DNA of 17,059 nucleotides, taken from the IMG/VR virus record IMGVR_UViG_2579778535_000004, positions 1-17,059 of that record. One strand, 5' to 3'. Below, piece by piece: positions 1 through 16,527 of this stretch. A program made the position numbers and the translations under genes. Origin of the DNA: a virus (Duplodnaviria > Heunggongvirae > Uroviricota > Caudoviricetes). A model generated the notes under the pieces. It saw nothing but the letters and a program-made list of their open reading frames with translations. It was not told where the DNA came from and did no database searches. Every line of letters begins with the position of its first letter. Positions within the stretch are counted from its first letter, which is position 1.

Positions 1-304
1 CTTCTCCCAAACCAAGGTTTTCGAGAGCCGTTTTCACCGTGCCATCCGATTTGATATCACCAAACGGATTCTTGCGGCTTAACAGCAGCGCACGAAGCGC
101 GGTAAGCAGCTGGTCATGCCGCCCCTTCTCCAGGCTGGCACCGGATGCCTCCACCACGCTGCAGAGTTCTTCCTGCAACATGTCAAAGTAGTCATCATCC
201 AGATCGGTGGCAGGTGTGCCGGTCTGGGGGTTACCACGGGTAAAACCGTTCTTACCCGCGCCGAACTTATCCTTCTGCGCGGTTTTCGTGTCTATACGAT
301 GCAT
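1..304 (-). CDS. Putative phage tail fibre protein, N-terminal part (gene continues beyond the window start)
   Basis: Open frame from ATG (revcomp of 302-304) to position 1, translating [29 protein letters not shown]... A GGAG lies 6 nt upstream of the ATG. The tail-fibre assignment is from remembered similarity only and is unverified. Confidence 0.4.
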
Positions 305-307
305 GGA

Positions 308-649
308 TTACTCCGGATATTTAAAAATTACGTAGGTATGCGAAGGGCAGAGTTTGTTAAGCACACACTCGACAACGGTGTCGCCCCAGATACGCAGTGC
401 GGAATCACAGGGACCGGGTTTATTCAGCGCGTCAATCAGGCGATCGCGCTGGTCAAAGCAGTCATCTCCCACCACATAAGCCGTGATGGACGGGCGGAAA
501 GTGATTTTCCCCAGGTCTTCGGTATAGGGTTTGTCGCGGTTCGGGTATTCGTGCGTTTCCACACGACGACCGGTTCCCGCACTTTCTTCTTCAACCTTAA
601 ACGGCACACCGCGAAATGACGCGTCCTGAAGTCTGTCTTTCCACGTCAT
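308..649 (-). CDS. Mu N-like DNA circularisation protein, N-terminal domain only (truncated, about 113 aa versus about 490 aa in Mu)
   Basis: The track ORF 308..691 contains [19 protein letters not shown]...HEYP, typical of the DNA-circulation N-terminal domain. The likely start is the ATG at 647-649, which has GGAG 6 nt upstream. The stop at 308-310 is followed immediately by the next gene. Confidence 0.5.
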
Positions 650-709
650 ATAAACTCCGTACATAAAAAATCCCACCGGAGTGGGACTCATTAACAGATT
701 AATTTTTCA

Positions 710-2545
710 TTACCTGCCAAAGCGCGTATAGCCAACATCATGGCTGACATCAAAACCGCTGGATCGCGTTTCCATAACCCGCATACCCGGAGGCGAATTC
801 ACAAAAGAGACCTTGATCTCACCATCAACTTTTGGCGCAGAAGCTTTGTTGATCATGAAGGGATTCGGGCCTGTGGCACCGGAGGCGTTGTTTGCCTGAG
901 CCGGATCCACCGCCGGATAAGGAGTGTATCCCCGTGGCGGTATTCCCGTCCCATAAGCATCATAAGCACCCGCGCCCCACTGCGCCGAGTTAATGGCATC
1001 GACCGTGTCACCGGAACTGTCGGTAAACCATTCAATAATCGGCTTCAGCTTGTCCCACATATCCTGAAACCACTTAACAACCGGTCCCCAGTTATTGATC
1101 ACCATCCCCAGCGGCGACCAGGCAAAAACCTTCTTCAGAAGTTCCCAGCCTGCCTCAAAATAAGGACCAATAGTTTCCCAGAGCTTCTTGAAATAAGGTC
1201 CGACAACATCCCAGTTAGTGATAATTAATCCCGCAGCCAGAGCAATCGCCGTCGCAATCATGCCAATCGGCGTCATCGACATGATCCTGCTGACAATACT
1301 GATGGCACCGCCCACGCCCATCAATCCCAGTTTCAGAATCGCAAGACCGGCAGCAAGCCCGACGACGCCGCGAATAACCCGGGGATTTTCATCCGCAAAC
1401 TTCGTGAATTTCTCCCCCAACTCCCCCAGCCACTGCGTGATGTTCTTAGCGTCACCAGAAAATGCGCCGCCAATAGCCGCAAGGCCGTTAGTTGCGGTCC
1501 CCGTCATTGCCTCCCACAGGTTGGACAGCGTACCAAGCTGGGCCTGAACACGTTTATTCAGGCTGGCCTGTTTATTCATCTTCTGCTGGATCTGATCGTA
1601 GCCATCCTTTCCTTTATCGATCAGCGCATTGACCACCTGAAGGGTTTCGGCATCATCACCAAATATTGCCTTAAGTACACCGGTTCGCTTAACGTCGGTC
1701 AGTTTTCGCAGCTTTGCCAGTTGCCTGAACATGTTATCAAGACCGCCAAAACTCCCTTTGCCATCAGTAAAATCGAGCTGTACCCCGAGTTTCTGGCGGG
1801 CCATGATTTTATTGACGTCCCTGATTTTCTTAACGCTTAATCCGGACTGGATAACTTTTCGCAGGGCATTACCTGCCGACTCCCCGTTCATCCCCATTTG
1901 ATCCATCATGACACTGATGGGGGCAAGACTCTGTGCAGCCTGAAGACCGTCCTTGTTCACCATCTTCAGAACAGAGCTGGTTTTAGTGAAGAATGACAAC
2001 ATGTTGGTGTCGTCAACGCCCAGATAAAACGCCTTCTGAATTGTGTCGAACAGCCCCATCATGTCTTCTGAGGCCGTTCCGGTAGCATCCTGCATCTTTG
2101 CAGCAAACTCAGCAGCCGCTTCCGGTGTTTTTTTCAGTTGTACCGCAAGATAAGCTGTCGCTTTACCCACACCACCAAGAATGTTTTCTGCCGGGATCCC
2201 CTGACGCACCAGCATCTGCATCATGTTCTGGAAATCAGCCGTTGTACCGGGTAGCTGGTTACCCAGGCCAATAGCCAGTTTATTGATGTCCTGAAAGCTC
2301 TTTCCAACCTCGCCGTTCGCATCCATCATGGCGACTTTCAGCCCGGTGGCGGCGTTTTCCTGATCGGCATAAGATTTCAGGGAAAGCGTCAGACCTGCTG
2401 CCAGTCCGCCACCAAGCGCCAGCCCACCCTGTGACGCTTCTTCCGCCTGGCGTTTAAATCCCCGGATTTTCTTTTGCATTTTCGACAGCGCGGGAGAAAG
2501 CCTGTCGACACCGGTGATCAACGCCTTAAGCTCAAATTCAGCCAT
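710..2545 (-). CDS. Tail tape measure protein
   Basis: 611-aa ORF directly downstream of the chaperone pair. It has an Ala/Gly/Gln-rich helical N-terminal half and hydrophobic, Trp-rich C-terminal segments typical of tape measure proteins. Confidence 0.85.
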   Translation of the reverse strand: MAEFELKALITGVDRLSPALSKMQKKIRGFKRQAEEASQGGLALGGGLAAGLTLSLKSYADQENAATGLKVAMMDANGEVGKSFQDINKLAIGLGNQLPGTTADFQNMMQMLVRQGIPAENILGGVGKATAYLAVQLKKTPEAAAEFAAKMQDATGTASEDMMGLFDTIQKAFYLGVDDTNMLSFFTKTSSVLKMVNKDGLQAAQSLAPISVMMDQMGMNGESAGNALRKVIQSGLSVKKIRDVNKIMARQKLGVQLDFTDGKGSFGGLDNMFRQLAKLRKLTDVKRTGVLKAIFGDDAETLQVVNALIDKGKDGYDQIQQKMNKQASLNKRVQAQLGTLSNLWEAMTGTATNGLAAIGGAFSGDAKNITQWLGELGEKFTKFADENPRVIRGVVGLAAGLAILKLGLMGVGGAISIVSRIMSMTPIGMIATAIALAAGLIITNWDVVGPYFKKLWETIGPYFEAGWELLKKVFAWSPLGMVINNWGPVVKWFQDMWDKLKPIIEWFTDSSGDTVDAINSAQWGAGAYDAYGTGIPPRGYTPYPAVDPAQANNASGATGPNPFMINKASAPKVDGEIKVSFVNSPPGMRVMETRSSGFDVSHDVGYTRFGR

Positions 2546-2956
2546 GTGTGCGTTTCTCCTGCTCTATCCTGTTTGCCTGACTGACCAGTAAGGGAATTTC
2601 ACTGATCGGCATATTCAGCAATTCGAAAGGATTAATGCGCCAGTAACTGGCGCAGTCAAAGAAGCGATCAGTGAGGTATTCAGCCGTCAGGCCTGGAGGA
2701 AAAAACCAGCCACAAGCCACGCCGCTGCATTCAGGTCTGCCGGAGACATCTGGTCGACAGAGCTTTGCGGCACTTTCGCCAGCCGCACAATGTATTTCGA
2801 TACCACATGCGCCAGAAGTCTGACGGACTCATCCTGATTCATCTGGTAGGGATACCCCAGCTCGCGGACATCTTTCCCGGTGGGCTCATCAAACTCCAGT
2901 ACGGAGAGTGTCTCGCCATGAGCGGTAATCGGTTTCTTTAACTCAAGCTCTTTCAT
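2538..2956 (-). CDS. Tail assembly chaperone long form made by programmed -1 frameshift
   Basis: The -1 frame from the slippery site (plus-strand A-run 2701-2706) stays open to the stop at 2538-2540 and matches the C-terminal 55 aa of track ORF 2538..2720 (FFPPGLTAEYL...). The product ends 8 nt inside the tape-measure start. This is the arrangement conserved in phage tail chaperone genes. Confidence 0.55.
2687..2956 (-). CDS. Tail assembly chaperone (short product)
   Basis: 89-aa ORF between the tube and tape-measure genes. Its start overlaps the tube stop as TAATG. It ends just after a T TTT TTC slippery run. Confidence 0.75.
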   Translation of the reverse strand: MKELELKKPITAHGETLSVLEFDEPTGKDVRELGYPYQMNQDESVRLLAHVVSKYIVRLAKVPQSSVDQMSPADLNAAAWLVAGFFLQA

Positions 2957-3312
2957 TACTGGTAATCCCCTTCTTCACCGTGGAACTCAAGATCAACCGT
3001 CCCTTCTTCGGCATTATGGTTTGCTTCGCCGTGCAGCCAGGCAGACGACAGTACATAGACCTGACCGTTCGCCAGCTCGGCTGTGATGGTCATCTCATCA
3101 GACGAGGTGATTTTGCTCACCGGAAAATTCTTCGGCACCTTGAAGGTCCCTTTAACATAAGGCGCACGGTGAGTTTCCTTGCGGTCCACTGAACCGTCCA
3201 GGCCGATGATGTCATCATTGACCGTCCTGTTCATGGGCACCTCAATGCCGCCGGTCAGCGATAGCTGCTGACCGTCAATTTTGAAATAACAGGTTCCCCC
3301 GATACGGGCCAT
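2956..3312 (-). CDS. Tail tube protein (Mu gpM-like)
   Basis: 118-aa ORF placed immediately upstream of the chaperone and tape-measure genes. It has an AGGAG ribosome-binding site, and an upstream reading frame ends TAATG on its start. Confidence 0.65.
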   Translation of the reverse strand: MARIGGTCYFKIDGQQLSLTGGIEVPMNRTVNDDIIGLDGSVDRKETHRAPYVKGTFKVPKNFPVSKITSSDEMTITAELANGQVYVLSSAWLHGEANHNAEEGTVDLEFHGEEGDYQ

Positions 3313-3583
3313 TATGCGGACTCCTCTGAATACTGAAGACGGAACTGGTTAACCACGGCAAAGACACGCAACTGGTTAACATAGTCAGGCGGGAACAGCG
3401 TGTTCAGGCGGTTCGGATCGCTGGCATCACGCTCCACAACCAGGTACTGCTTAAAAAGTTCGTAGTTTTCCACGATCCCCGCACGCTCAAGCTGACGGTA
3501 GCGATGGTGTATTGAGGCTGGCTATCTTCCTTCGCGAAGGATGCAAGGTCTTCAAACTGCTTAGCTGTAAGAACCACTGTCAT
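3313..3583 (-). pseudogene. Gene remnant read in two frames, possibly the 3' end of a tail sheath gene at a deletion junction
   Basis: Minus-strand ATG at 3583 opens a 59-codon frame (MTVVLTAKQFEDLASFAKEDSQPQYT...) that stops at 3404. A second frame, open from about 3521, carries protein-like sequence (...ELFKQYLVVERDASDPNRLNTLFPPDYVNQLRVFAVVNQFRLQYSEESA) and ends TAATG on the tube start, but has no ATG. Confidence 0.3.
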
Positions 3584-3595
3584 ACCTCTGTCGTT

Positions 3596-3619
3596 AAAAA
3601 ACCTCGCTATTGCGAGGTT
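3596..3619 (-). terminator. Intrinsic terminator-like hairpin at the end of the lysis cassette
   Basis: Minus strand reads AACCTCGC-AATA-GCGAGGTT followed by TTTT. The Rz1 stop codon lies in the loop. Confidence 0.45.
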
Positions 3620-3864
3620 CGCGATTGCTCAATCGTTCGGATGTCCGCTTTATCTCTGTTACACTGCCCCAGCGCCAACAACAAGCTGACATTCAAATCC
3701 AAACTGCCTCCATAGGTCAGCGGCTCAGGAATAGCTGGTTGCAGTGTTTCAGTGGTCAGATTCGCCGGTAATGGCACCGCTGGAACTGGCACGTAAACTG
3801 TCCGCGTACTTCCGCAACCGGTCAGCAGCGGCAGCAGGCACAGCACGTGAAGCACAATCATCAT
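3607..3864 (-). CDS. o-spanin (Rz1-like outer-membrane lipoprotein)
   Basis: Alternate frame beginning inside the Rz gene: MMIVLHVLCLLPLLTGC with an LTGC lipobox, then a proline-rich stretch. About 38 codons are embedded in Rz and the frame runs on past the Rz stop. Confidence 0.6.
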   Translation of the reverse strand: MMIVLHVLCLLPLLTGCGSTRTVYVPVPAVPLPANLTTETLQPAIPEPLTYGGSLDLNVSLLLALGQCNRDKADIRTIEQSRTSQ

Positions 3865-4141
3865 CCGCAACAGCCATTTTGATATCTTCCTGGGTTCTCT
3901 GTGACTCCAGTGTGCTCTGCTGTTTTGCATGCTGGTTAGCCTCCAGTACTGTATTGACGATTTGCAGTGATTGCAGGACGTTATTGGTAATGGCAGTTGC
4001 CGATTTGGCATTTTGTACAGCCTCATCAGCACGTTTCTTTTCGTGCTGATATTTGCTGTAGTAGTAGTTGGCTGACCAGATGAAAGAACTGACGACAGTA
4101 AAAAGGAAAGCAGCGATAACCAGCTTATAGCTTAACTTCAT
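3749..4141 (-). CDS. i-spanin (Rz-like)
   Basis: 130-aa ORF with an N-terminal transmembrane helix (LVIAAFLFTVVSSFIW) and a charged, helical remainder. It starts within the 3' end of the endolysin gene. Confidence 0.7.
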   Translation of the reverse strand: MKLSYKLVIAAFLFTVVSSFIWSANYYYSKYQHEKKRADEAVQNAKSATAITNNVLQSLQIVNTVLEANQHAKQQSTLESQRTQEDIKMAVADDDCASRAVPAAAADRLRKYADSLRASSSGAITGESDH

Positions 4142-4601
4142 TTACCACCCCACCAGCCTCTTTAAATCGGGCAATCAGGTCACCGATTTTATGTTCATAC
4201 TGACCGTAACCTGCACCAGGTAACGACGCCCAGATATTGCTGCACCGGTCGATTGCCTGACGGATATCGCCGCGATCAATCATCGGTAAAGCACCTCGCT
4301 CTTTAATCTGCTGCAATGCCACTGCGTCCTGGCTTTTGGGGGAGAAGTCTTTCAGAGCAAGCTGTTTACGGTATGCATCCCACCAACGGGAAAGAAGCTG
4401 GTATCGCCCGGCAGCCGTTGATTTGAGTTTTGGGTTCAGCGTGACAAGTTTGCGAGGATGATCGGAGTAATCAGTGAACAGTTCGCCTCCCACAATAACG
4501 TCATAACCGTGGTTACATGTCGGTTGCCGTCCGTTATCAGTTCCTTCTGACCATGCCACCATATCGAGGAAAGCTTTACGCTGGGAATTTAGTACCTGCA
4601 T
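4125..4601 (-). CDS. R: Endolysin, lambda R-like lytic transglycosylase
   Basis: The 158-aa translation is close to identical to lambda R as I remember it (NSQRKAFLDMVAWSEGTDNGRQ...GYDVIVGGELFTDYSDHPR...DRCSNIWASLPGAGYGQ). Confidence 0.9.
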   Translation of the reverse strand: MQVLNSQRKAFLDMVAWSEGTDNGRQPTCNHGYDVIVGGELFTDYSDHPRKLVTLNPKLKSTAAGRYQLLSRWWDAYRKQLALKDFSPKSQDAVALQQIKERGALPMIDRGDIRQAIDRCSNIWASLPGAGYGQYEHKIGDLIARFKEAGGVVNEVKL

Positions 4602-4604
4602 AAA

Positions 4605-4931
4605 TTACTCCTTAGAGCCACCAAACTTATTACCGATTACTCTCATTGCAGCCCCACGAATAGCATCGACACCGATCAACCCAACGCCACCACCAATGGC
4701 AACAGAAAGCGATTTAGGCCATCCGACATACTCAAGAGCGGATGCAAAAGTCAGCGTCAGAGCGCCACAGAGTAGAATTTCGAGTGTTTTTCGCTTCCAG
4801 CCACCACCACCGCCAAAATAGGCAATGCGCAAACCAGCCATAACAATCGACATAATCACTGCGCCCAGCGGTGTGTCTCCACGCCACCAGCTCTGGACCA
4901 ACTCCAGCCAGGTATTTGGGTTATGAGGCAT
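4605..4931 (-). CDS. Holin
   Basis: 108-aa ORF immediately upstream of the endolysin. It has two to three hydrophobic helices and a charged C-terminus, with GAGGTGAGAG upstream of the ATG. Confidence 0.7.
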   Translation of the reverse strand: MPHNPNTWLELVQSWWRGDTPLGAVIMSIVMAGLRIAYFGGGGGWKRKTLEILLCGALTLTFASALEYVGWPKSLSVAIGGGVGLIGVDAIRGAAMRVIGNKFGGSKE

Positions 4932-5082
4932 TTGTAGTTATCTCTCACCTCGCTGATACAGCAGGTGCAAATTGAGGAAACATCATGTACCGCAAATCAG
5001 AAGCGGAAACGTCAAAGAAGCCGAGTCAATGGATAACTGCGGGATAGACCAGGCCCAACGAATCCCTAGGCCCAGAAACGAC

Positions 5083-5105
5083 AAAACCCGCTCGACGGCG
5101 GGTTT
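5083..5105 (-). terminator. Perfect 8-bp-stem hairpin, possible tR'-like terminator of the late leader
   Basis: AAACCCGC-6 nt loop-GCGGGTTT. On the minus strand the stem is followed by TTTTGTCGTTTCT. It sits between the cassette and the holin. Confidence 0.3.
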
Positions 5106-5151
5106 AAGCTGTGTGGCGAAGTAACCACTCTTAACAGATTACAATGATTTT

Positions 5152-5179
5152 TGCGTACGCGTTAGCATTTTCGTAAAAT
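5152..5179 (+). promoter_or_regulatory. Candidate sigma70 promoter for the nuclease-methyltransferase cassette
   Basis: TTGCGT at 5152-5157, a 16-nt spacer, then TAAAAT at 5174-5179, about 30 nt upstream of the ATG at 5211. Found by eye only. Confidence 0.25.
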
Positions 5180-5210
5180 ACATTACCTTGCAACCATTTC
5201 AGTATAAAAA

Positions 5211-7001
5211 ATGAGCACAGAATTAAAACTAAAGAAAATTATGGCATCGTCTAAAATTGAGCCATTTATTAGACATATTCGTTTTCCTTTTTTTAAAAAC
5301 CTTGCAGAGGGTAGCAAGATTGATTTTGAGTATCCAATTACAGCATTAGTTGGTCAAAACGGAACCAATAAAAGTTCTGTTTTAAGAGCCCTATTCGGTT
5401 CTCCAAACAACTATTCTCTGGGTAGCTTATGGTTTTCTACAGATGTAGATGAGATTAAAGATGGTGGTCGTTCTAGATTTATTTATGGATATTATGACAA
5501 AGCTACTGATTCAATTGTTGAAGTAATTAAAACTCGAATCTCTAAAGAAAATGATCCTGATTACTGGGAACCATCCAGACCATTAAAATCCGACAACATG
5601 GCTCCAATGCCTAGTACAACAATCTCAACCAATCAACTAAGGACTAGGTGGAAAGCTATTGACAAAAATGTAATATATTTAGATTTCAGAGCAACTATCA
5701 GTGCATTTGATAAGTTCTTTTATCACTCTGATTTTCATACATACCCTAAGAAAGATTATCTTAGAAAACGCAGTCAGATGCTAAAAGACATTATAGATAA
5801 CGATCTTAAAAAATATCAACCTCATAAAGGAAAAAAAGACAAGCTATTTGTTAACACTTTATTAGAAAAAAGTAAGGTAGAGGCAATCAGCAAGATTTTA
5901 GGTCGCAAATACACAAGCATCCGCCTTATTGAACATAGCTTATTCACTAATGACAAAGCTCCCACAATTATTCTTCAATCAGAAAACTTAAAATATTCTG
6001 AAGCTTTTGCAGGCAGTGGGGAATTTGCTGTATCTATATTAGTGCATAAACTAATGGATAGCCCTGATGCATCTTTAATTCTGCTAGATGAACCTGAAGT
6101 ATCACTTCACCCTTCTGCTCAATGTCAATTGATGGAATTTTTATCAGAACAAGCACTTAAAAAGAAACATCAAATTGTCATATCCACACATTCATCAACA
6201 ATAGTAAAAGACTTGCCTAAAAATGCCATAAAATTATTCTGTCTGAATGATAAAATAGGAAAGGTTGATGTTCTTCAAAATGTCAGTCCAGAAGAATCTT
6301 TCTTTATTCTTGGTGAACGCATTGATAAAAGAACCGTTATTGTAGAAGATCGGTTAGCGAAGAGGTTTGTAGAAAAGGCGCTTAAAGCGGGTGGTGAAGC
6401 ATTATTAAACTCCTTCGAAGTAAAACATGTTCCTGGAGGAGCGGGAAGTATTCTTCAAACTTTGGCTGTGCCTTTATGTGTTGCCAATGTTAAAAACGTT
6501 ATTTTCTTATTAGATGGTGACCAATCGAGAACTGATGATTATCCAACTTCTGATTCCATACCAGAAAATCAAAACACAAACCTTCAAAACATCATAAAAA
6601 AAATAACCAATCAAGATATAAAATTTAGTTGTGATGGTTCTAATGGCTCATCAAATAACAATCAAAAATACAAAATGCAAAGAAATTTTATCGATTTCAT
6701 CCACGATAAAATTGCTTTTCTTCCTGTTTATACTCCTGAAGCATTTCTTATTGAGAATGTTCATGGTGATTATAAAGAATATAAAGATCAAATCCCCAAA
6801 AACATTCAAGATGCTAAAGAAATCACCAAAGAACTTTGTAAGTTAGACACAGGGTTGGAGAACGTTACCAGTGACGATATCTTTGAAACACAAATCAGAA
6901 TTCTTAATAAAATACCAAATAATCATGAAGTGTTAACAAAAACTCGAGAGTTGCTGCAAATCTTTTTAGATAATGATACTATCAGACCAAGAGTGAGGTA
7001 G
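5211..7001 (+). CDS. Predicted OLD/Gabija-GajA-like nuclease: N-terminal ABC-type ATPase fused to a C-terminal TOPRIM domain
   Basis: 596-aa ORF with a P-loop LVGQNGTNKSS, Walker B ILLDEPEVSLHP, a STHS H-loop-like motif, and a C-terminal TOPRIM pattern (TVIVEDRLAKRF...NVIFLLDGDQS, about 60 aa apart). Hand counts give about 27-30% GC here versus about 45-55% in flanking lines. Confidence 0.65.
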   Translation: MSTELKLKKIMASSKIEPFIRHIRFPFFKNLAEGSKIDFEYPITALVGQNGTNKSSVLRALFGSPNNYSLGSLWFSTDVDEIKDGGRSRFIYGYYDKATDSIVEVIKTRISKENDPDYWEPSRPLKSDNMAPMPSTTISTNQLRTRWKAIDKNVIYLDFRATISAFDKFFYHSDFHTYPKKDYLRKRSQMLKDIIDNDLKKYQPHKGKKDKLFVNTLLEKSKVEAISKILGRKYTSIRLIEHSLFTNDKAPTIILQSENLKYSEAFAGSGEFAVSILVHKLMDSPDASLILLDEPEVSLHPSAQCQLMEFLSEQALKKKHQIVISTHSSTIVKDLPKNAIKLFCLNDKIGKVDVLQNVSPEESFFILGERIDKRTVIVEDRLAKRFVEKALKAGGEALLNSFEVKHVPGGAGSILQTLAVPLCVANVKNVIFLLDGDQSRTDDYPTSDSIPENQNTNLQNIIKKITNQDIKFSCDGSNGSSNNNQKYKMQRNFIDFIHDKIAFLPVYTPEAFLIENVHGDYKEYKDQIPKNIQDAKEITKELCKLDTGLENVTSDDIFETQIRILNKIPNNHEVLTKTRELLQIFLDNDTIRPRVR

Positions 7002-7004
7002 ATA

Positions 7005-8045
7005 ATGGCTAAAAAGATACACGTTTACGATTTCTTTTCCGGCTGCGGCGGAACCAGTGTAGGCCTAAAAGCGGTGGGAATGGAAATTATTTTCGGTTTA
7101 GATATTGATCTAGACTCCGCTAACACCTTTAAAATGAATAATCCATTTGCACATTTTATCAATGGTGATATCAAAGATACACACGTTGAGGAAATTAAGC
7201 ATCTGGTTTGTGCGTCAACACAAAGCAAAGCTCTAACCCTATTTTGTGGTTGTGCTCCATGTCAACCATTCTCGAAACAAAATAAAATACGGAACGAGGA
7301 TGATCCGAGAAAAGATCTGCTTACTGAGTTTGCACGGTTTGTCTCTTATTATACGCCAGACTTTGTACTGGTAGAGAATGTACCAGGAATCCAAAATGTC
7401 GATATTAACAATGGAAATTTCCAGAAATTTCTTGAGATTTTAGCACATCATCACTACAACGTTGATTTTGGTGTGATTCCTGCGTTGTGGTTCGGGGTTC
7501 CTCAAACACGTGAACGTTTTGTTTTACTGGCGTCAAAACACACGAATATTAAGCTTCCATCACAAACTCATGATGGGTTAAAAACTCCGTATGCAACTGT
7601 CAGAGACTGGATCGGCGGATTACCTCCTATTGCTGCCGGTGAAACTCATAAAGATGTTATGGATCATACAGCAGCCAAACTATCTGATCTAAATATTAAA
7701 CGTATTAAAGCGACTCCTGAGGGAAAAGGTAGAGAATCTTGGCCTGAAGAACTTATACTAAAATGCCATAAAAAATATAAAGGGCATACTGATGTTTATG
7801 GACGGCTTTCTTGGGACAAACCAGCAAGTGGATTAACAACTAGATGTATAAGCTATTCGAATGGACGTTTCGGACATCCAGAGCAAGATAGGGCTATTTC
7901 TGTTAGAGAGGCTGCGTTATTACAGACTTTCCCATTAGACTATTCCTTCACAGGCTCTTTAGTCTCGAAAGCCAAACAGATAGGGAATGCAGTCCCTCCC
8001 AAGATGGCTGAAGCTCTTGGAAGGGCTATCATCGCATCACTTTAA
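7005..8045 (+). CDS. DNA (cytosine-5)-methyltransferase
   Basis: Motif I FSGCGG, motif IV GCAPCQPFS with the catalytic Cys, motif VI LVENVPG, motif VIII PQTRERF, motif X QIGNAVPP, in canonical order. The ATG is 4 nt after the upstream stop, so the two genes are probably co-translated. Confidence 0.9.
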   Translation: MAKKIHVYDFFSGCGGTSVGLKAVGMEIIFGLDIDLDSANTFKMNNPFAHFINGDIKDTHVEEIKHLVCASTQSKALTLFCGCAPCQPFSKQNKIRNEDDPRKDLLTEFARFVSYYTPDFVLVENVPGIQNVDINNGNFQKFLEILAHHHYNVDFGVIPALWFGVPQTRERFVLLASKHTNIKLPSQTHDGLKTPYATVRDWIGGLPPIAAGETHKDVMDHTAAKLSDLNIKRIKATPEGKGRESWPEELILKCHKKYKGHTDVYGRLSWDKPASGLTTRCISYSNGRFGHPEQDRAISVREAALLQTFPLDYSFTGSLVSKAKQIGNAVPPKMAEALGRAIIASL

Positions 8046-8055
8046 AAGCGGAGCC

Positions 8056-8412
8056 CTAGAGGGCTTCGCCTAACAATAATAGAATACCTGATATAAACCC
8101 TATAGCTCCCTGAAGCTCTTTTCTAATTGCTCCATCAGAGCATTTTCTTTTCTTAGCAATGGTGCGTAATGAGATACCAATCACAAAATGAGCAATGATC
8201 AGCTCATATTCTTCTGGTTTATACTTCCGCAGGCGGGCGACACAGCCATCAATCATGATGCCTTCATCATCATCACACTGAATCCGGGACTTTCTGCCAT
8301 GAGGTAAAAGCCCCTTGAAGCCAGCGGCTACCGGTTGCCAATCCACACCACTGTTCTCTGCCGCAGCCCACGCTCCCCAACGGTCTAATACTTCATACAT
8401 ATCACACATCAA
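8056..8412 (-). CDS. Late-gene antiterminator Q (Phage_antitermQ family)
   Basis: 118-aa protein with VLDRWGAWAA...AAGFKGL...CDDDEG...C, matching the Q family of several lambdoid prophages as I recall it. It sits between the nin-like genes and the lysis region. Confidence 0.8.
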   Translation of the reverse strand: MMCDMYEVLDRWGAWAAAENSGVDWQPVAAGFKGLLPHGRKSRIQCDDDEGIMIDGCVARLRKYKPEEYELIIAHFVIGISLRTIAKKRKCSDGAIRKELQGAIGFISGILLLLGEAL

Positions 8413-8426
8413 CTTTCTCCACCAAA

Positions 8427-9422
8427 TCAGGCTAGCACACCAATTGCCAACGCACGGTCGATAAAACGAAATATCAGCTCCAGCTGGGAGCCATACTTCT
8501 CTTCAAATGCCACGGTATCCGCATGCAGCTCGTCGTGATGCTTTCTGCACAAAGGCAACACAAAGAGGTCATGCGCTTTTGTACCCATTCCGCCCTGACC
8601 GTGGCCTATCAGGTGGTGGGGATCATCAGCAGGTTTTCCACAACATGCGCACGGCTGCGTCTTAACCCAGCGCGTGTACTTTTCATTAACCCAGCGGTGA
8701 CGTTTTGGGCGTAACATAAAAGACTCCGGCGACTCCGGATCCACTTTCAGCGCCAGCACCTTTTTCGCCTTATCCTGGATGATGCTGGTGGCAGGAACCG
8801 AAGGCACAAGGTCACTTTCCCGGGTAACAGACGGCACAACAGGCTTCGGTAATCTCAGTGCCTTACGGGCTGCACTTTCCGGTAAGGCATCCGCCAGATC
8901 ATTACGAATCAGCCACCAGCACAGTTCCGGCATTGTCACAACATGACTGTCATCAAAACCGAGATCCCGACGCACAACAGACAACACCCAGCGGGCACAG
9001 TTATCCGTTGCCATTGATTCCAGCCGTTCCGTGAACTGATCGCGCAGCTGGTTATCGCAGTGCCAGCACAGACGGATTGCGCCCGGAGCGTGTCGCATTG
9101 TTGTCATGTTCTCGCTGTGCCAGTCGGAATGAGGCCACTGGCAGCCTTTTTCACGAAGTAACCAGCTTTCAAGACATTCCACGCCACCAGCACGACGGAT
9201 CACTGCCTCATTGCGGAACACGGCCAGAACGGCAGGATCATCCGCCAGCGGTTGTGATGCCGCCGGAACAGCACCACTGGCGAAAGATGAATAACGTTCC
9301 GGCTCAGGCTCCAGCAGGACACGCCCCTGCATAAACAGGGGCATCAGCTCTGAACCTGGTCTGAACAATACGATCCCCATACGCGGGGCAATTTCAGGGG
9401 TCAGTAGTGCTCTCACGGTCAC
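8427..9422 (-). CDS. DUF968-family phage protein with an HNH-like zinc-finger C-terminus
   Basis: 331-aa ORF whose C-terminus reads CACCGKPADDPHHLIGHGQGG...LPLCRKHHDELH. Its position next to Q matches the usual placement of DUF968 genes in lambdoid prophages. Confidence 0.7.
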   Translation of the reverse strand: MTVRALLTPEIAPRMGIVLFRPGSELMPLFMQGRVLLEPEPERYSSFASGAVPAASQPLADDPAVLAVFRNEAVIRRAGGVECLESWLLREKGCQWPHSDWHSENMTTMRHAPGAIRLCWHCDNQLRDQFTERLESMATDNCARWVLSVVRRDLGFDDSHVVTMPELCWWLIRNDLADALPESAARKALRLPKPVVPSVTRESDLVPSVPATSIIQDKAKKVLALKVDPESPESFMLRPKRHRWVNEKYTRWVKTQPCACCGKPADDPHHLIGHGQGGMGTKAHDLFVLPLCRKHHDELHADTVAFEEKYGSQLELIFRFIDRALAIGVLA

Positions 9423-10642: not shown

Positions 10643-10965
10643 ACTTTCAGCTCCCTCTCATGTAACCAGTGGGCTGCACGCAGCCTGGCGTTTTCCTCAC
10701 CGGCAAGCAGTGAGCGGATAATCCCGACCGCCTCGCTGTCGTCGTCCTTCACCGCGGTATGAAGCGTTATCCCCCGGGCCACGCCACGCTTTATCGTGAT
10801 GACGCCTTTTTTCTCCAGTGCGCGAAGATGCTCCACCGCTGCATTCACTGAACGGTATCCCAGCATGGTTGCCACCTCCTGATTGGTTGGCGGAAAGCCA
10901 CGCTCTTTCTGGTAAGAAATCAGCATATCCAGCACCTGCTGCTGGCATTGAGTTAACGTCGTCAT
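10639..10965 (-). CDS. LexA-like N-terminal DNA-binding domain protein with no peptidase domain
   Basis: MTTLTQCQQQVLDMLISYQKERGFPPTNQEVATMLGYRSVNAAVEHLRALEKKGVI parallels the LexA winged-helix domain. The start at 10963-10965 is chosen because it overlaps the upstream stop as TAATG. Confidence 0.6.
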   Translation of the reverse strand: MTTLTQCQQQVLDMLISYQKERGFPPTNQEVATMLGYRSVNAAVEHLRALEKKGVITIKRGVARGITLHTAVKDDDSEAVGIIRSLLAGEENARLRAAHWLHERELKV

Positions 10966-11459
10966 TACGCCCCCACGTAATTCCCTGACAGATACCACTC
11001 ATCACTCGATACAGCGCGCTTGCTGCTTTTCCGTAAACACTGCTCACGACGCGCCAGAAAATTGTTTCGTTCTGGCTGGGAGTGGCTTTCACGGAATGCC
11101 ACCACCCACACCGTTGCAGCACGACGGTATAAGCCCCTGGACTCCAGTTCTTCCGCCTGGCGGGTCAGGCACAAAATCTCCCGCGGGTCGTTAGTGCCGA
11201 CATAGAAATTGCGCACAGGTCTGGTTTCACGAACTGATTGCGGTTCCGCCTCCTGCGCTCTCTCAGTCAGGCGCGGGAAATGTCTGCGTGTATCCCCTTC
11301 ACAACGGTGAGCCACACGACCACTCTGACGTAACTTGCTTGCTGACTGCAGAACGCGCTGCCGTGAGTAACCTGCAAAAGCATCCGCAATGTCTCCGGAA
11401 GTACACCCCGGATGGGCTTCAATGAATTTCTGAACGTCATTCAAAAGACTCATGCTCAC
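10965..11459 (-). CDS. Putative PerC/Pch-like regulator
   Basis: The C-terminal half has RGLYRRAATVWVVAF...ARREQCLRKS, resembling the GLWRRAA-RW motif of PerC-family activators. This is a memory-based call and unverified. Confidence 0.4.
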   Translation of the reverse strand: MSMSLLNDVQKFIEAHPGCTSGDIADAFAGYSRQRVLQSASKLRQSGRVAHRCEGDTRRHFPRLTERAQEAEPQSVRETRPVRNFYVGTNDPREILCLTRQAEELESRGLYRRAATVWVVAFRESHSQPERNNFLARREQCLRKSSKRAVSSDEWYLSGNYVGA

Positions 11460-12397
11460 CCCCTGAATCCTGCCGGGATCTGGCTGTAGTCCACGTTGTC
11501 GTAACTGGCTTTGAAGTACGGGTCTTCGCGTTTTTCGGTGTACGTGCTGACGGACGGCGATAAGCGCAGGGAAAGCTCATCCCATTTTTCCCGCAGCTTC
11601 GACGGGCTGAGCACGTTACGGCACCAGAACGGATCGCGACTGACGCGGCTGTACATCTCGCAGATTTGTTTATGAGTACGACCATCCTGCACACACATCA
11701 GGCGAATTTCGTTTGCCCAGGCTGTCCAGTTCGGTTCTTTGGGACGAACCACCTCGCCGTCACATTCGGCGGCCTGCTCGTACAGGGCGATGATTTTTTT
11801 CCAGAGCCACTGTGCGCAGGTCAAATCATCCTGCGTTCCCCACTGGCGCTTTTTAGGGCTGAATACAACCGCATCAGGATGGCGAGTTAAAAACTCCTGT
11901 TCAGCCGTCTGCGTGTCCGGTTGCGAAGCGTCCGGACGAGAAGTTTTTTTATCTGACGGATCATGTTTTGATTTTACTGACGGATCCCCGCCAGATTCTG
12001 ACGGGTGAAAACCCGCTTTTTTGCCAGATTTCGACGCATCAAATTTTGACGGGTCAGATTTTGATGCGTCAGATTTTGACGGGTCAGAATCTGACAGTTG
12101 AGAAAATGCCGCTGCCTGAAGCTTCGCAACGTTAAGCTGATAAACATTCGACGCATTGCGGTTACCCTGGCGACGCGCCTTACGCGTTAACCAGCCTTCT
12201 GCTTCCAGCCGTGCGATAGCCGTCCTGACGGTACTCATCCCCGCGCCAATCTGACGGGCAATAGTTTCAATTGATGGCCAGCACACACCTTCGTCATTAC
12301 TGAAATCAGCCAGGCGGGCCATAATTGCCACGCTGGATAATTTCATGCCTGATGCAGCGCAACCATCCCATACATAGCCGGTTAATTTAGTGCTCAT
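11456..12397 (-). CDS. Replication initiator-like protein (N-terminal HTH domain, repeat-encoded linker, C-terminal domain)
   Basis: 313-aa ORF with an N-terminal winged-helix region and a central SKSD-type peptide repeat encoded by tandem DNA repeats. It occupies the position of a lambdoid O gene after the cro and CII-like genes. Confidence 0.55.
   Translation of the reverse strand: MSTKLTGYVWDGCAASGMKLSSVAIMARLADFSNDEGVCWPSIETIARQIGAGMSTVRTAIARLEAEGWLTRKARRQGNRNASNVYQLNVAKLQAAAFSQLSDSDPSKSDASKSDPSKFDASKSGKKAGFHPSESGGDPSVKSKHDPSDKKTSRPDASQPDTQTAEQEFLTRHPDAVVFSPKKRQWGTQDDLTCAQWLWKKIIALYEQAAECDGEVVRPKEPNWTAWANEIRLMCVQDGRTHKQICEMYSRVSRDPFWCRNVLSPSKLREKWDELSLRLSPSVSTYTEKREDPYFKASYDNVDYSQIPAGFRG
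11948..12098. repeat. Tandem 15-bp direct repeats (iteron-like) inside the replication initiator gene
   Basis: Five contiguous 15-bp units between 12024 and 12098 (TCAGATTTTGACGGG and variants), plus three degenerate copies back to 11948. They encode the linker of the initiator. Confidence 0.55.
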
Positions 12398-12406
12398 GAC
12401 CGACCT

Positions 12407-12745
12407 CTATTTCCCTGAATTTACGACGAAACTGTTCGAGCGGACTGAAGCACTCATGCTCATAGCCTTCGCGGAGGTAGATAACCCGTTGTGTTTCCGG
12501 TTCCCAACGAATGACTCTGACGGGCACTCCGTAGTGATCTTTGAACCAGCGGTTAACTTGTCGCAAAGGACTGTCTCCTTCTGCCGGTTGAAATCACCCA
12601 CAGCCCACTCTGCAAAGCTGTGGGTTACAATTTCCCTGTCACCTGGTACATTTACTGCATAGCAATACTCCACCTTCGCTTTTCCACCCGGTACAGGAAG
12701 CGCAATCAGTTGCGAGCGACGGTAGTGTGTTGTTAAACTGTTCAT
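12407..12745 (-). CDS. Hypothetical phage protein with an ambiguous 3' reading frame (possible frameshift)
   Basis: The N-terminal half ([53 protein letters not shown]) looks protein-like. The Ser-rich tail of the listed frame looks less so than an alternative frame (12387-12593, ...[56 protein letters not shown]) that ends overlapping the next gene's start. Confidence 0.4.
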
Positions 12746-13305
12746 GCGTTAGTTTCTCCACAGTCACGACACGCCACGGCGCCCGGAGCTGCACACTCGC
12801 GGGCGTCATTACTTTCTGAAATGCAAAAGATTTTGTAGACCAGTGCTGCATGCTCCTGCAGCTTCGAAATTGAGAGATATAGCTCGTCGTTAATTGCTGT
12901 TTTCTCATGCGGTTCCACTACACCGTCTTCGATTGCTGAACGAATCTGTTTTGAATAACTGCCGATCTGTTCAATGACTTCCAGCAGACGCTGGTTAATA
13001 TCGGCGTTGTCCACATCCTCGACGTCAGGAAGAGACACAAATACGCCATTTGCAGACTGCGCCACAGCATCAGCAATGAAGTGAGTGCCACCAGCACGCT
13101 GTAAAACCATTGCCCATCCCAGCGGAAAAATCTGATCGCCATCTGCACGAAGGCGGTTGAATAAAGCGTTCTCTGTTACATCCAGCCAGTCAGCCGCTTC
13201 AGCGTAACCACCCGGCAACGCCGCGATAGTTTTTCTGACAGCTTTCACGTACCACTCAGGCTGTTTTTCTATTTTCCAGTGATGCTTACCCACGATTAGC
13301 CTCAT
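12742..13305 (-). CDS. Putative CII-like regulatory protein
   Basis: 187-aa ORF immediately downstream of the cro-like gene. The family assignment is from weak remembered similarity and position only. Confidence 0.4.
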
Positions 13306-13336
13306 CGTTCTGTGGTTAAAAATTGAAAGTGTTCTG

Positions 13337-13537
13337 CTAATCTTTCGGATAGATATCCGGTCTTAAGTCAGATTTCGTAATTGCACCTGACGTGCATTGC
13401 TCAAGTTTTTTAGCCAGCACAAAACTGGCTTTTTTATAGCCATTGAAAACCAGCCGTAAGTAGCCAGGTGTTGAGCCAACTTTTCCGGCCAACTCGCCCT
13501 GCTGTTCTTTGGTTAAAGAGTCCCAATACGCTTTCAT
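13337..13537 (-). CDS. Cro-like HTH regulator (YdaS-type)
   Basis: MKAYWDSLTKEQQGELAGKVGSTPGYLRLVFNGYKKASF...SDLRPDIYP. GGAGG lies 9 nt upstream of the ATG at 13535-13537. It is divergent from the CI-like gene. Confidence 0.65.
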   Translation of the reverse strand: MKAYWDSLTKEQQGELAGKVGSTPGYLRLVFNGYKKASFVLAKKLEQCTSGAITKSDLRPDIYPKD

Positions 13538-13591
13538 ACAATATGTACCTCCGGTGTACATACTACATGATTAAAATGAACCTTCAAGATA

Positions 13592-13612
13592 CTTGTACCT
13601 TAACGGTACAAG
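13592..13612. promoter_or_regulatory. Palindromic operator in the CI/cro divergent promoter region
   Basis: CTTGTACC-TTAAC-GGTACAAG, with perfect 8-bp arms, overlapping a candidate plus-strand promoter (TTGTAC, 17 nt, TTTAAT) whose start site would fall at the CI ATG. Confidence 0.5.
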
Positions 13613-13627
13613 GGTTTTAATTTCGTT

Positions 13628-14302
13628 ATGAAAACAATCCATGACATCCGGCGGTCTAACGCCAGAAAACTGAGAGATGGTGTAGGCGGGAATTCTTCCT
13701 TTGCCACTATGATTGATCGCGAGCCAACCCAGACCAGCAGGTTTATGGGAGATGGTGCTACTAAAAATATCGGTGACAGCATGGCACGACACATCGAAAA
13801 ATGTTTCGACCTGCCTGTCGGATGGCTCGATCAAGAACACCAGACAACCAACATCACAAAAAAACCTGATGTTTCAATCACTAATAAACAAATCACATTA
13901 GTCCCTGTCATATCATGGGTACAGGCCGGAGCATGGAAAGAAGTTGGATATTCTGAGGTTGATTTGAGCACAGCAGAAACGTATCCCTGCCCTGTACCCT
14001 GTGGGGAAATGACTTATATCTTGCGGGTGATAGGTGATTCAATGATTGATGAGTACCGCCCGGGAGACATGATTTTTGTCGATCCTGAAGTACCTGCCTG
14101 CCACGGTGACGACGTTATTGCATTGATGCACGATACAGGTGAAACCACCTTCAAAAGGTTGATAGAAGATGGGACACAGCGTTATCTCAAAGCGTTAAAC
14201 CCAAACTGGCCTGAGCCTTACATTAAGATCAACGGTAATTGCTCTATAATTGGAACTGTGATTTTCTCAGGAAAACCAAGAAGATACAAAATCAAAGCCT
14301 AA
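13628..14302 (+). CDS. CI-like repressor (HTH plus S24 LexA-type autopeptidase domain)
   Basis: 224-aa ORF with an N-terminal HTH, an Ala-Gly cleavage site (VQAGAWKE), the catalytic Ser in VIGDSM and a Lys in TFKRL. Confidence 0.85.
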   Translation: MKTIHDIRRSNARKLRDGVGGNSSFATMIDREPTQTSRFMGDGATKNIGDSMARHIEKCFDLPVGWLDQEHQTTNITKKPDVSITNKQITLVPVISWVQAGAWKEVGYSEVDLSTAETYPCPVPCGEMTYILRVIGDSMIDEYRPGDMIFVDPEVPACHGDDVIALMHDTGETTFKRLIEDGTQRYLKALNPNWPEPYIKINGNCSIIGTVIFSGKPRRYKIKA

Positions 14303-14314
14303 TCAATGTTTATG

Positions 14315-14337
14315 AACCTGCTTCGGCAGGTTTTTTT
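14315..14337 (+). terminator. Rho-independent terminator after the repressor gene
   Basis: AACCTGC-TTCG-GCAGGTT followed by a run of seven T. Confidence 0.65.
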
Positions 14338-14341
14338 ATAC

Positions 14342-14374
14342 TTGACAATGTACCTTTGAGATACATAATGTATC
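14342..14374 (+). promoter_or_regulatory. pL-like promoter with an overlapping palindrome (candidate operator)
   Basis: TTGACA at 14342-14347, a 16-nt spacer, then CATAAT at 14364-14369. The palindrome GATACAT-A-ATGTATC (14360-14374) covers the -10. Confidence 0.4.
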
Positions 14375-14473
14375 CAAGAGAAACAAAAAACAGGCAGGAC
14401 GCCCACGAAGTAGCCGCCGGTGGCGTATGAATGACCGGATGATTCGTTAAATACTATGTGTAAGAGAGCGCAA

Positions 14474-14677
14474 ATGAACCGTTATTTCACATGCTCGTTT
14501 TGTGGCGCAAACGAGCTGCAGGCAAAAAAAATCATCGCCAAAGGCGGAAAAGATGAAGTTGCTATCTGCTCTGAGTGCGTAGTCTTGTGTGTCGGGGCAT
14601 TAATCAATATCAGCACAACTATTCAGTTCACACCAAATGAGAATGCGCCTTTAGATGCGCGGAAATCTGGAGGTTAA
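14474..14677 (+). CDS. Small zinc-ribbon protein resembling the ClpX N-terminal zinc-binding domain
   Basis: FTCSFCGANELQAKKIIAKGGKDEVAICSECVVLC parallels the ClpX zinc-binding domain (CSFCG ... ICDECV-LC). The start is taken at the internal ATG at 14474, preceded by AGAGAG. Confidence 0.5.
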   Translation: MNRYFTCSFCGANELQAKKIIAKGGKDEVAICSECVVLCVGALINISTTIQFTPNENAPLDARKSGG

Positions 14678-14685
14678 AGAACAAA

Positions 14686-14961
14686 ATGAAAGTCCAGATT
14701 TTAAACAATAGTGGTGAAGTCGTTTGGTCATACGACATAGCCGCTCCTGTAGATCAGAGCGGCGATAGCTGGACCAATGGGAAACATCAGATTATGGCTG
14801 GAGTTGTGTTCTCTTTACGCCGTGCTTTAGAACAGGCTGAAGTCTTTCCATCAGACCCTGAATGGAAATGGCCTTTTTCTATTTGTCCAAATTCGGAGAG
14901 TACATTTCAGAAAATTGGTCAGAAAGTCGCACTCGAAGAGCATCAGCCAACTGTTTCCTGA
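14686..14961 (+). CDS. Hypothetical protein, second gene of the left operon
   Basis: 91-aa ORF with GGAGG about 12 nt upstream. Its 3' end overlaps a convergent ORF by about 83 nt. Confidence 0.45.
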   Translation: MKVQILNNSGEVVWSYDIAAPVDQSGDSWTNGKHQIMAGVVFSLRRALEQAEVFPSDPEWKWPFSICPNSESTFQKIGQKVALEEHQPTVS

Positions 14962-15124
14962 TTTTTTCAGGTAACTCGTCGGCATCGCAGAAACAACAAC
15001 GCTCGATCATGTTGAAAGCCGATTCGTAGAACTGTTTTTGCTGAGTGTCGCTGAGACAGGAAAAGAGCGACGTTACGATGATTTTATTAATTGCATTATC
15101 AAGTTCTTTTTCATCAAAAGTCAT
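14879..15124 (-). CDS. Hypothetical protein, convergent with the left operon
   Basis: 81-aa ORF with AAGGA about 8 nt upstream of the ATG at 15122-15124 and protein-like composition. Confidence 0.45.
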   Translation of the reverse strand: MTFDEKELDNAINKIIVTSLFSCLSDTQQKQFYESAFNMIERCCFCDADELPEKIRKQLADALRVRLSDQFSEMYSPNLDK

Positions 15125-15378
15125 TTGATTTTCCTTTTATGTATACGGGCTTAAAAGGATACCACCGAGCCTGAAGTGGTGAAAAGACAGGCACATAACA
15201 GCTAAGTATTTTCAACCAGAGAGAATCCTTAGCGTTGTGGTGAATGCGGCTCAGCGCACACGGGTTAAGGTTGAGGCTGACAGTCGACCTTCTGTGGATA
15301 CCCACCCGCCTGGTGTGCAACCTTCGCCAGGCACCGGGAGGCACCCGGCACCACAACTTTATGCTGTGTGTAGTCTTA

Positions 15379-15423
15379 GCGGTACCAGCTTGTACCCTTG
15401 CTTCCGGCTGGTACCGTCCTTTT
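15379..15423 (+). terminator. Terminator-like hairpin inside an ORF-poor GC-rich region
   Basis: CGGTACCAGC-17 nt loop-GCTGGTACCG followed by TCCTTTTT. The loop contains CTTGTACC, identical to the operator half-site at 13592-13599. Confidence 0.35.
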
Positions 15424-15637
15424 TACAAAACAGAGAAGAGCATCACCGGACGACGGGCTCATAACCCAATCCATCCGGGCGGCTGCCACCGCAGGTGTTC
15501 TTCTCTGTTTTGTGGAGAAACTAACCGCCCCTACGGGGGCATTTATGGAAATGTAATTGACTCAATAATCGCCGGACGGTGAGGGCTTCCTTTTACCCGA
15601 ATTCAGCGCGGTGCAGCGCATATACGTGGAGAACAAA

Positions 15638-16174
15638 ATGTCATTTATTAAAACTTTTTCCGGGAAGCATTTTTATTATGACAGGATAAATAAAGACGAC
15701 ATCGTTATTAACGATATCGCGGTTTCCCTTTCAAATATCTGTCGCTTTGCAGGACATCTTTCACACTTCTACAGTGTCGCCCAACATGCGGTGCTTTGCA
15801 GCCAGCTGGTGCCACAGGAATTTGCTTTTGAAGCTTTAATGCATGATGCAACAGAAGCATATTGCCAGGACATCCCCGCACCACTGAAACGACTTCTTCC
15901 TGACTATAAACGGATGGAAGAAAAAATAGACGCCGTAATACGTGAGAAATACGGGTTACCTCCTGTTATGAGCACGCCAGTGAAATATGCCGATCTCATT
16001 ATGCTGGCAACCGAACGCCGCGATCTCGGGCTTGATGATGGCTCTTTCTGGCCTGTACTGGAAGGTATCCCGGCAACAGAGATGTTCAAAGTGATTCCAC
16101 AGGTACCGGGCCATGCCTACGGGATGTTTATGGAACGTTTTAACGAGTTATCGGAGTTACGCAAATGCGCATGA
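15638..16174 (+). CDS. HD-domain phosphohydrolase
   Basis: H...HD metal-binding pattern (SVAQHAVLCSQL ... ALMHDATEAY). The start is taken at the ATG at 15638, with GGAGAA 8 nt upstream. Confidence 0.7.
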   Translation: MSFIKTFSGKHFYYDRINKDDIVINDIAVSLSNICRFAGHLSHFYSVAQHAVLCSQLVPQEFAFEALMHDATEAYCQDIPAPLKRLLPDYKRMEEKIDAVIREKYGLPPVMSTPVKYADLIMLATERRDLGLDDGSFWPVLEGIPATEMFKVIPQVPGHAYGMFMERFNELSELRKCA

Positions 16175-16527
16175 ATGTTTTCGAAATGGAAGGGTTTCTT
16201 CGTGGGAGATGTGTACCGCGAGATCTGAAAGTGAATGAAACAGATGCTGAATACCTGGTGCGTAAATTCGATGCGCTTGAAGCTAAATGTGCAGCACAGG
16301 AAAACAAAGTAATACCAGTGTCAACTGAACTGCCACCAGCAAATGAAAGTGTTTTGTTATTCGATGCTAACGGAGAAGGCTGGCTAATTGGCTGGCGTTC
16401 TCTCTGGTACACCTGGGGACAAAAAGAAACCGGAGAATGGCAGTGGACATTTCAGGTCGGGGACCTTGAAAACGTCAATATCACTCACTGGGCAGTAATG
16501 CCAAAAGCACCGGAGGCTGGAGCATAA
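16165..16527 (+). CDS. DUF551-like phage protein
   Basis: 120-aa ORF ending ...GEWQWTF...ITHWAVMPKAPE, reminiscent of DUF551. GGAG lies about 10 nt upstream. Confidence 0.45.
   Translation: MRMNVFEMEGFLRGRCVPRDLKVNETDAEYLVRKFDALEAKCAAQENKVIPVSTELPPANESVLLFDANGEGWLIGWRSLWYTWGQKETGEWQWTFQVGDLENVNITHWAVMPKAPEAGA

Follow-up and report, generated by a model that had tools for sequence, protein, structure and literature searches.

Our analysis of a 17,059-bp stretch of DNA, which comprises one entire draft contig (AYQQ01000075.1, assembly GCA_000503395.1) and is referred to as the window throughout, has led us to view the region between its lysis and tail genes as very probably the scar of a single deletion inside an SfV-like prophage that has removed the packaging, head and neck genes and nearly all of the sheath gene. 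Measured against the intact prophage of E. coli DLI.6n, the window lacks 10,197 bp between positions 3501 and 3502 (locus L002 3809|14007), in agreement with the deletion of more than 10 kb of head and packaging genes that had been proposed in the initial annotation, with HNH, DUF2513, neck and tail-terminator genes also gone. The loss of essential morphogenesis genes, the mapped breakpoints and the fusion of fragments at both of its two deletion junctions, where the N-terminus of a 64-residue protein is joined out of frame to the C-terminus of the sheath and the protein N in frame to gp48, thus define the element, as far as can be judged from sequence, as a prophage that is defective by internal deletion. 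The features on which this assignment is based are listed in Table 1.

Table 1. Features at the two deletion junctions and in the adjoining lysis and tail genes, in window coordinates.
Feature	Position	Strand	Evidence and remarks
Fusion of DNA-circularisation protein N (residues 1 to ~85) with gp48/YmfQ C-terminus (161-194), in frame	308..664	-	Spans junction 2 at 410-416
Tape measure protein, 611 aa, intact	710..2545	-	Pfam PhageMin_Tail; length as SfV orf14
Tail assembly chaperone (89 aa, 2687-2956) with -1 frame extension (2538-2720)	2538..2956	-	Pfam Phage_TAC_7
Tail tube, 118 aa, intact	2956..3312	-	Pfam Tail_tube, E 2e-33; 100% identical to SfV tube
3' remnant of tail sheath gene, residues 437-498 of 498 and stop	3312..3501	-	PF17482 Phage_sheath_1C; 100% identity to DLI.6n and SfI sheath C-terminus
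Chimeric 59-aa ORF made by the deletion	3404..3583	-	29 native residues and 30 from out-of-frame sheath DNA
Deletion junction 1	3496..3501		6-bp microhomology CGGTAG common to both parents; three-way alignment and BLAST breakpoints
5' remnant of 64-aa gene of unknown function (WP_053893048.1), 3' of Rz1 in intact relatives	3502..3583	-	99.6% DNA identity to DLI.6n and three other E. coli genomes; first 29 residues identical
Native terminator-like hairpin	3594..3619	-	8-bp stem, 4-nt loop, T run; fold and identity with intact relative (L002)
Rz1/LysC o-spanin lipoprotein, 85 aa	3607..3864	-	Lipobox LLTGC (MMIVLHVLCLLPLLTGC); Pfam LysC, E 6e-17; annotated lysC in relatives
Rz-like i-spanin, 130 aa	3749..4141	-	Position and length as SfV Rz; weak DUF2570 match
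Endolysin, 158 aa	4125..4601	-	Aligns to DLI.6n GH24 endolysin; same length, 154/158 identical, no internal stops
Holin, first lysis-cassette gene, 108 aa	4605..4931	-	Pfam Phage_holin_3_1; DLI.6n holin of same length, 107/108 residues identical

Gene content and order characterise the window as an SfV-like lambdoid myovirus prophage of E. coli or Shigella with a Mu-like tail, and as an incomplete derivative of this family. The lambdoid myoviruses SfV, SfII, SfI and SfIV of Shigella flexneri (Allison et al., 2002, as cited in PMC3603311) combine lambdoid regulation and lysis with a Mu-like contractile tail (PMC3603311). In a megablast comparison with phage records, SfV, SfII, SfIV and relatives from E. 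coli match the window at about 96% identity over 60-70% of its length (96.2-96.4% over 70% for SfV and SfII, with aligned blocks at 96-97.5%), and in a BLAST alignment to SfV all blocks appear in SfV order except at the deletions. The window covers the canonical order of this group from xis to the tail-fibre gene and shares with it the Mu-like genes for tube, chaperone, tape measure, N, gp48 and fibre, the lambdoid layout of the regulatory and lysis regions and a high identity over the tail, lysis-adjacent and early regions. In contrast to SfV, it lacks the segments equivalent to SfV 36604-37074 and 1-8817 (holding HNH, cos, terminase, portal, protease, capsid, the neck genes and sheath residues 1-436) and to SfV 11910-16558 (holding the baseplate), it contains a more divergent allele of the lysis cassette (88.7% identical to SfV and 97% to DLI.6n) and it carries a nuclease/methyltransferase module at the place of SfV orf47-orf48.

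The intact reference for our comparison is the prophage of E. coli DLI.6n (NZ_CP103974.1, 1928801-1957065), a full-length SfV-like element with terminase, portal, capsid and sheath annotated between its holin and tape measure, which is collinear with the window and 96.6-98% identical on both sides of junction 1 (flanks 96.6-97.2%). Both share the hairpin behind Rz1, the start of the 64-aa gene and the nuclease/methyltransferase module, whereas the DLI.6n prophage keeps the 10,197 bp and the baseplate genes that are missing from the window, as well as a dam gene that is absent from it. The latter, encoding a dam-like N6-adenine methyltransferase of about 640 bp in SfV and DLI.6n, is precisely missing at window 10962-10971 between a LexA-like gene and yfdN, whose flanks overlap by 10 bp, and the same arrangement is found in the prophage of the finished E. 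coli genome LR-03, which probably reflects modular variation rather than decay. The contig starts inside the tail-fibre gene and ends at 17059 inside an xis-like gene just before the integrase, suggesting that the assembly was interrupted at sequences that also occur in other prophages of this genome; our view consequently does not extend to the att sites, to the integrase or to any O-antigen-modification (gtr) genes. A scan of the window at the gathering score has revealed no Rfam families.

The signature of the event is contained in a stretch of 272 bp on the minus strand (3312-3583), which had been described as a two-frame gene remnant in front of the tail tube. The requirement for a change of frame upon reading it from end to end is borne out, whereas its interpretation as a single frameshifted gene is not, since its two parts, when compared to intact relatives, are recognised as fragments of two unrelated genes that are joined at the deletion junction. 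A Shine-Dalgarno-like GAGG followed by an ATG at 3583 opens the chimeric ORF, and in another frame reading is uninterrupted from 3503 down to a stop at 3312-3314 that overlaps with the ATG of the tube gene. That the remnant might be an intact small gene in relatives applies only to its first 29 codons, which belong to the 64-aa gene, the rest being derived from the sheath, and the fragments reside in different frames because they have never been one gene. The distal half of the remnant matches positions 52-104 of 104 of PF17482 in a profile search (E 1.1e-10), as expected for the C-terminus of a sheath protein, and it lacks a separate start codon that would be in register with the coding sequence upstream. 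The chimeric ORF shows no match to Pfam and its product is absent from an index of 153 billion genes in an exact-product look-up.

The endpoints of the deletion and the identity of the fragments on either side emerge directly from alignments to intact relatives. With respect to SfV, the alignment breaks at window 3501, which corresponds to position 8818 inside the sheath gene, and it resumes at 3628, corresponding to 36603 at the end of Rz1. In a three-way alignment, the window agrees with the sheath-side sequence as far as 3501 and with the lysis-side sequence beginning at 3496, with the hexamer CGGTAG present in both. At 3250-3501, the window shows 100% identity to the boundary between sheath and tube genes in SfI and in hundreds of prophages of E. 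coli, and at 3496-3760 it shows 99.6% identity to a segment that four E. coli genomes, DLI.6n among them, have annotated as 'lysC plus hypothetical protein'. When a 511-bp probe covering the stretch was compared to database records, it always fell into two separate parts, and none of the records contains both halves. The chance of sharing at least 6 bp at a random joint is about 0.0013 by computation, and the improbable identity gives the joint the appearance of a microhomology-associated illegitimate recombination.

The genes lost with this segment are equally evident from the comparison with DLI.6n. They include the rest of the 64-aa gene, DUF2513, HNH, TerS, TerL, YmfR, portal, protease and capsid, followed by the head-tail connector, the head closure, the tail terminator, DUF2635 and sheath codons 1-436. 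In tblastn searches with SfV and DLI.6n queries, none of the packaging and head proteins (TerS, TerL, portal, protease, capsid, adaptors, neck proteins and HNH) finds a match in the 17-kb window, and a match for the sheath is restricted to its last 62 codons. The initial statement that terminase, portal, protease, capsid and sheath are absent is thus upheld, with the sheath being reduced to residues 437-498, and the window, despite spanning the SfV order from xis to the tail-fibre gene, does not hold head or packaging genes at another location. Since the cos site of SfV, which marks the ends of its genome, is located between orf53 and TerS (in the HNH-TerS interval) and hence inside the deleted segment, cos would, judged by the gene order of SfV, also have been lost from the window.

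The event itself may be reconstructed as follows. The ancestral minus strand would have contained, in this order, Q, holin, endolysin, Rz/Rz1, the terminator hairpin, the 64-aa gene, DUF2513, HNH, cos, TerS and TerL, continuing with portal, protease, capsid, connectors, tail terminator, DUF2635, sheath, tube, chaperone and tape measure. A joint between the two copies of CGGTAG, located in the 64-aa gene (codon 28-29) and in the sheath gene (codon 436-437), would have removed all 10,197 bp between them, leaving behind a meaningless chimeric ORF of 59 residues. Behind this ORF, a promoterless sheath fragment without a start continues into the tube gene, which is intact. The genes that remain show 96-100% identity to their counterparts in intact phages, and the deletion is hence recent.

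Junction 1, for which we provide a 29-mer as marker (AAGCTGACGGTAGCGATGGTGTATTGAGG), is defined at the level of a single draft contig, and exact-junction searches of 5,426 complete E. coli genomes, the GTDB species representatives, the JGI metagenomes and IMG/VR have not found it elsewhere. Its absence from any other record searched would be compatible with an assembly artefact, where two loci, or two prophages of the same genome, were joined without a deletion having taken place in the cell. Along the same lines, the window equals a whole draft contig with both ends in the often-repeated prophage genes for tail fibre and xis, and two identical contigs from metagenomes stop at positions 3295 and 3143, just short of the junction. 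We nevertheless regard such a misjoin as very unlikely. The 6 bp shared at the joint are far below any overlap or k-mer length used by assemblers, and a repeat-driven misjoin would thus not be expected; the second junction of the same contig is confirmed on three independent public contigs, and comparable deletions are found in finished genomes. It is possible that a second, intact SfV-like prophage resides elsewhere in the same genome, our evidence being derived from one contig.

The deletion at this second junction affects the baseplate. Window 1-416 corresponds to SfV 16974-16559 and the sequence from position 410 onward to SfV 11909 downward, resulting in a loss of about 4.65 kb (SfV 11910-16558) that contained the baseplate genes P, gp45, gp46 and gp47 and whose joint falls within a microhomology of 4-7 bp. 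The N-gp48 fusion is present on three other public contigs (two from ENA metagenomes and one from Logan) that are 100% identical to the window. In an exact-product look-up, its 113-aa version recovered the contig of the window and these three sister contigs, while nothing was found for a 127-aa version; junction 2 was also not found in JGI metagenomes or GTDB representatives. Both ENA contigs are those that end short of junction 1. The Logan contig (L006, ERR4843236_342; positions 549-550) joins window 4287 in the endolysin to 2261 in the tape measure, with 100% identity on both sides, and has thus undergone a further deletion of 2,025 bp that took Rz/Rz1, junction 1, tube, chaperone and part of the lysis cassette. 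This looks as if the same prophage lineage were decaying in steps, or it may be an artefact of the Logan assembly. The identical sister contigs together with the further deletion suggest that the decayed lineage circulates and is still shrinking.

On the other side of junction 1, the lysis cassette has retained its coding capacity. Holin, endolysin and the LysC frame, and likewise tube and chaperone, are of full length, do not contain internal stops and are identical to DLI.6n at 89-100% of their positions; the tape measure is likewise free of internal stops. The Rz1/LysC gene, starting with an ATG at 3864, overlaps with the 3' end of Rz and extends past it. The terminator-like hairpin that had been noted behind the Rz1 stop is confirmed. 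Its GC-rich stem and loop at 3600-3619 reads AACCTCGC-AATA-GCGAGGTT on the RNA strand and is followed by a run of T, with the TAG stop of Rz1 (3607-3609) covering the last base of the stem and the loop. Together with a neighbouring hairpin, it folds with an energy of -16.6 kcal/mol (z = -3.1), a stability not reached by any of 200 shuffled sequences. A consensus terminator scan did not list this hairpin, since only four T are left after the maximal stem. It is base-for-base the same in the intact prophage of DLI.6n and thus ancestral: it was located between Rz1 and the following late gene before the deletion occurred, and it is neither a product nor a marker of this event. In lambdoid phages, late transcription modified by Q, as in case of lambda Q, is expected to pass such terminators.

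Another strong terminator-like hairpin (AAACCCGC...GCGGGTTT and a T run) is found at window 5084-5105 on the minus strand, about 150 bp upstream of the holin and on the strand of the late genes, in a layout that resembles pR'-tR' of lambda, with no promoter-like site called by a scan. If this resemblance holds, the target site of Q would be parted from the Q gene by a 3-kb antisense insertion. This insertion, located between Q (8056-8412, minus) and the holin, is a module of two genes running opposite to the late genes (5211-8045, plus), of which one encodes a 596-aa OLD-like ABC-ATPase nuclease (Pfam AAA_15/AAA_21; best PADLOC match HEC-04 at 2e-36, followed by ATPase-Toprim) and the other a C5 cytosine methyltransferase of 346 residues. 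The same module is found in LR-03 and, as already mentioned, in DLI.6n, and it is a candidate for defence or restriction-like cargo.

The described losses and the genes that remain define what this prophage might still be capable of. Since it lacks cos, terminase, portal, capsid, sheath and baseplate, the packaging of DNA and the building of particles should be impossible, and the removal of the baseplate genes by the second deletion implies that a functional tail could not be made either. In contrast, the intact frames of repressor, Q, holin, endolysin and spanin suggest that SOS induction could still lead to Q-dependent late transcription and lysis. Late transcription would in this case pass the native hairpin and extend into the chimeric ORF and the tube, chaperone and tape-measure genes, which would now be functionless passengers. 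The initial proposal that the prophage keeps its lysis functions is accordingly supported only with respect to the integrity of the reading frames; a sister contig that is otherwise 100% identical has since lost part of the lysis cassette.

The intact lysis cassette, Q and repressor, combined with the nuclease/methyltransferase module between Q and holin and the persistence of the decayed lineage, as evident from an identical tail-side remnant in three other samples, could also be viewed as properties of a domesticated unit, which would either be a selected SOS-inducible lysis and defence island or a head-less, tail-derived particle resembling a tailocin. In its former version, the host lineage would have kept the decayed prophage as a non-infectious island with the repressor, Q, the lysis cassette and the OLD-like nuclease/methyltransferase module as cargo, and the late lysis transcript would, as a result of the deletion, in addition directly include the tube, chaperone and tape-measure genes and the new chimeric ORF of 59 residues. 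We consider either version highly improbable. No contractile particle could be formed with a sheath of 62 residues and without the baseplate hub, gp45, gp46 and gp47; the close identity of the remaining genes to intact phages indicates a recent deletion and carries no signal of long retention; the module is equally present in the intact relative; and the further deletion from the endolysin into the tape measure in the sister contig counts against selection for the lysis genes. An R-type tailocin, as might be suspected from the absence of head genes next to a lysis cassette, was rejected on the ground that 436 of 498 sheath residues are missing along with the baseplate hub, gp45, gp46 and gp47. 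A phage satellite of the PICI or P4-like type was equally rejected, as, apart from two deletions, the content of the window is collinear with that of a complete SfV-like phage and the cos-bearing HNH-TerS interval is deleted.

The Mu-like tail module of this defective prophage can still be recognised but is incomplete. What is left of it are the intact tube, chaperone and tape measure, the sheath remnant and the fused N-gp48, with P, gp45, gp46 and gp47 being absent and no match for the baseplate hub, gp45, gp46 or gp47 detected in the 17-kb window by tblastn with SfV and DLI.6n queries. The module contains a two-frame gene at a different location, which by its sequence features is the Phage_TAC_7 chaperone downstream of the tube, where a slippery heptamer T_TTT_TTC (2699-2705) just before the chaperone stop, combined with an ORF of 60 residues in the -1 frame, points to the programmed frameshift that is usual ahead of the tape measure gene. 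That the 272-bp stretch at junction 1 would itself be a genuine gene expressed by programmed ribosomal frameshifting, or an intact small gene of relatives, as its two overlapping open frames directly upstream of tail genes, the GAGG and ATG of its first frame and the start of the relatives' small gene at the same ATG might suggest, is almost certainly incorrect, since its halves are found 10 kb apart in every relative as parts of different genes (the 64-aa gene and the 498-aa sheath), the frame changes exactly at the deletion breakpoint, the continuation of the first frame has no family match and no identical product on record, and the real frameshift gene of the module is the chaperone; a -1 frameshift gene of the tail chaperone type was rejected on the basis of the three-way alignment.

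Related prophages in finished E. coli genomes have decayed in a comparable manner. In LR-03 (L007 12883-14075), where the prophage is located at thrW, the N-terminus of TerL is fused to the C-terminus of baseplate protein J. In EC05 (L008 20079-23881), the prophage between prfC and yjjG contains a joint of N and YmfQ that differs by 23 bp from the one in the window and it is heavily eroded, with an IS903B insertion, a truncated tape measure and further losses, and it adjoins the defence gene Dsr1. Both belong to the same phage family as the window, and in both, internal deletions have fused unrelated morphogenesis genes while regulatory genes, and in LR-03 also lysis genes, are retained. Their breakpoints differ from those described here and neither of them shares junction 1, thus indicating independent events. 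The cryptic prophages e14 and CPS-53 of E. coli K-12, whose ymf and yfd gene names recur in these annotations, are presumably akin as defective remnants.

Collectively, our analysis describes an ordinary example of prophage decay whose exact junction 1 is on record nowhere else in the collections searched. The deletion fits a pattern where incomplete prophages preferentially lose the genes for packaging and particles (PMC7744054). For annotation, it implies that the ORFs at 3312-3583 should be labelled as pseudogene fragments rather than as a gene or a frameshift site and that the prophage should be flagged as defective. Beyond annotation, its significance is small: the microhomologies of 6 bp and 4-7 bp at its two joints add one more case of microhomology-associated deletion to the decay of SfV-like prophages, and the sister contig with its further deletion offers a small snapshot of how such decay may proceed in steps.
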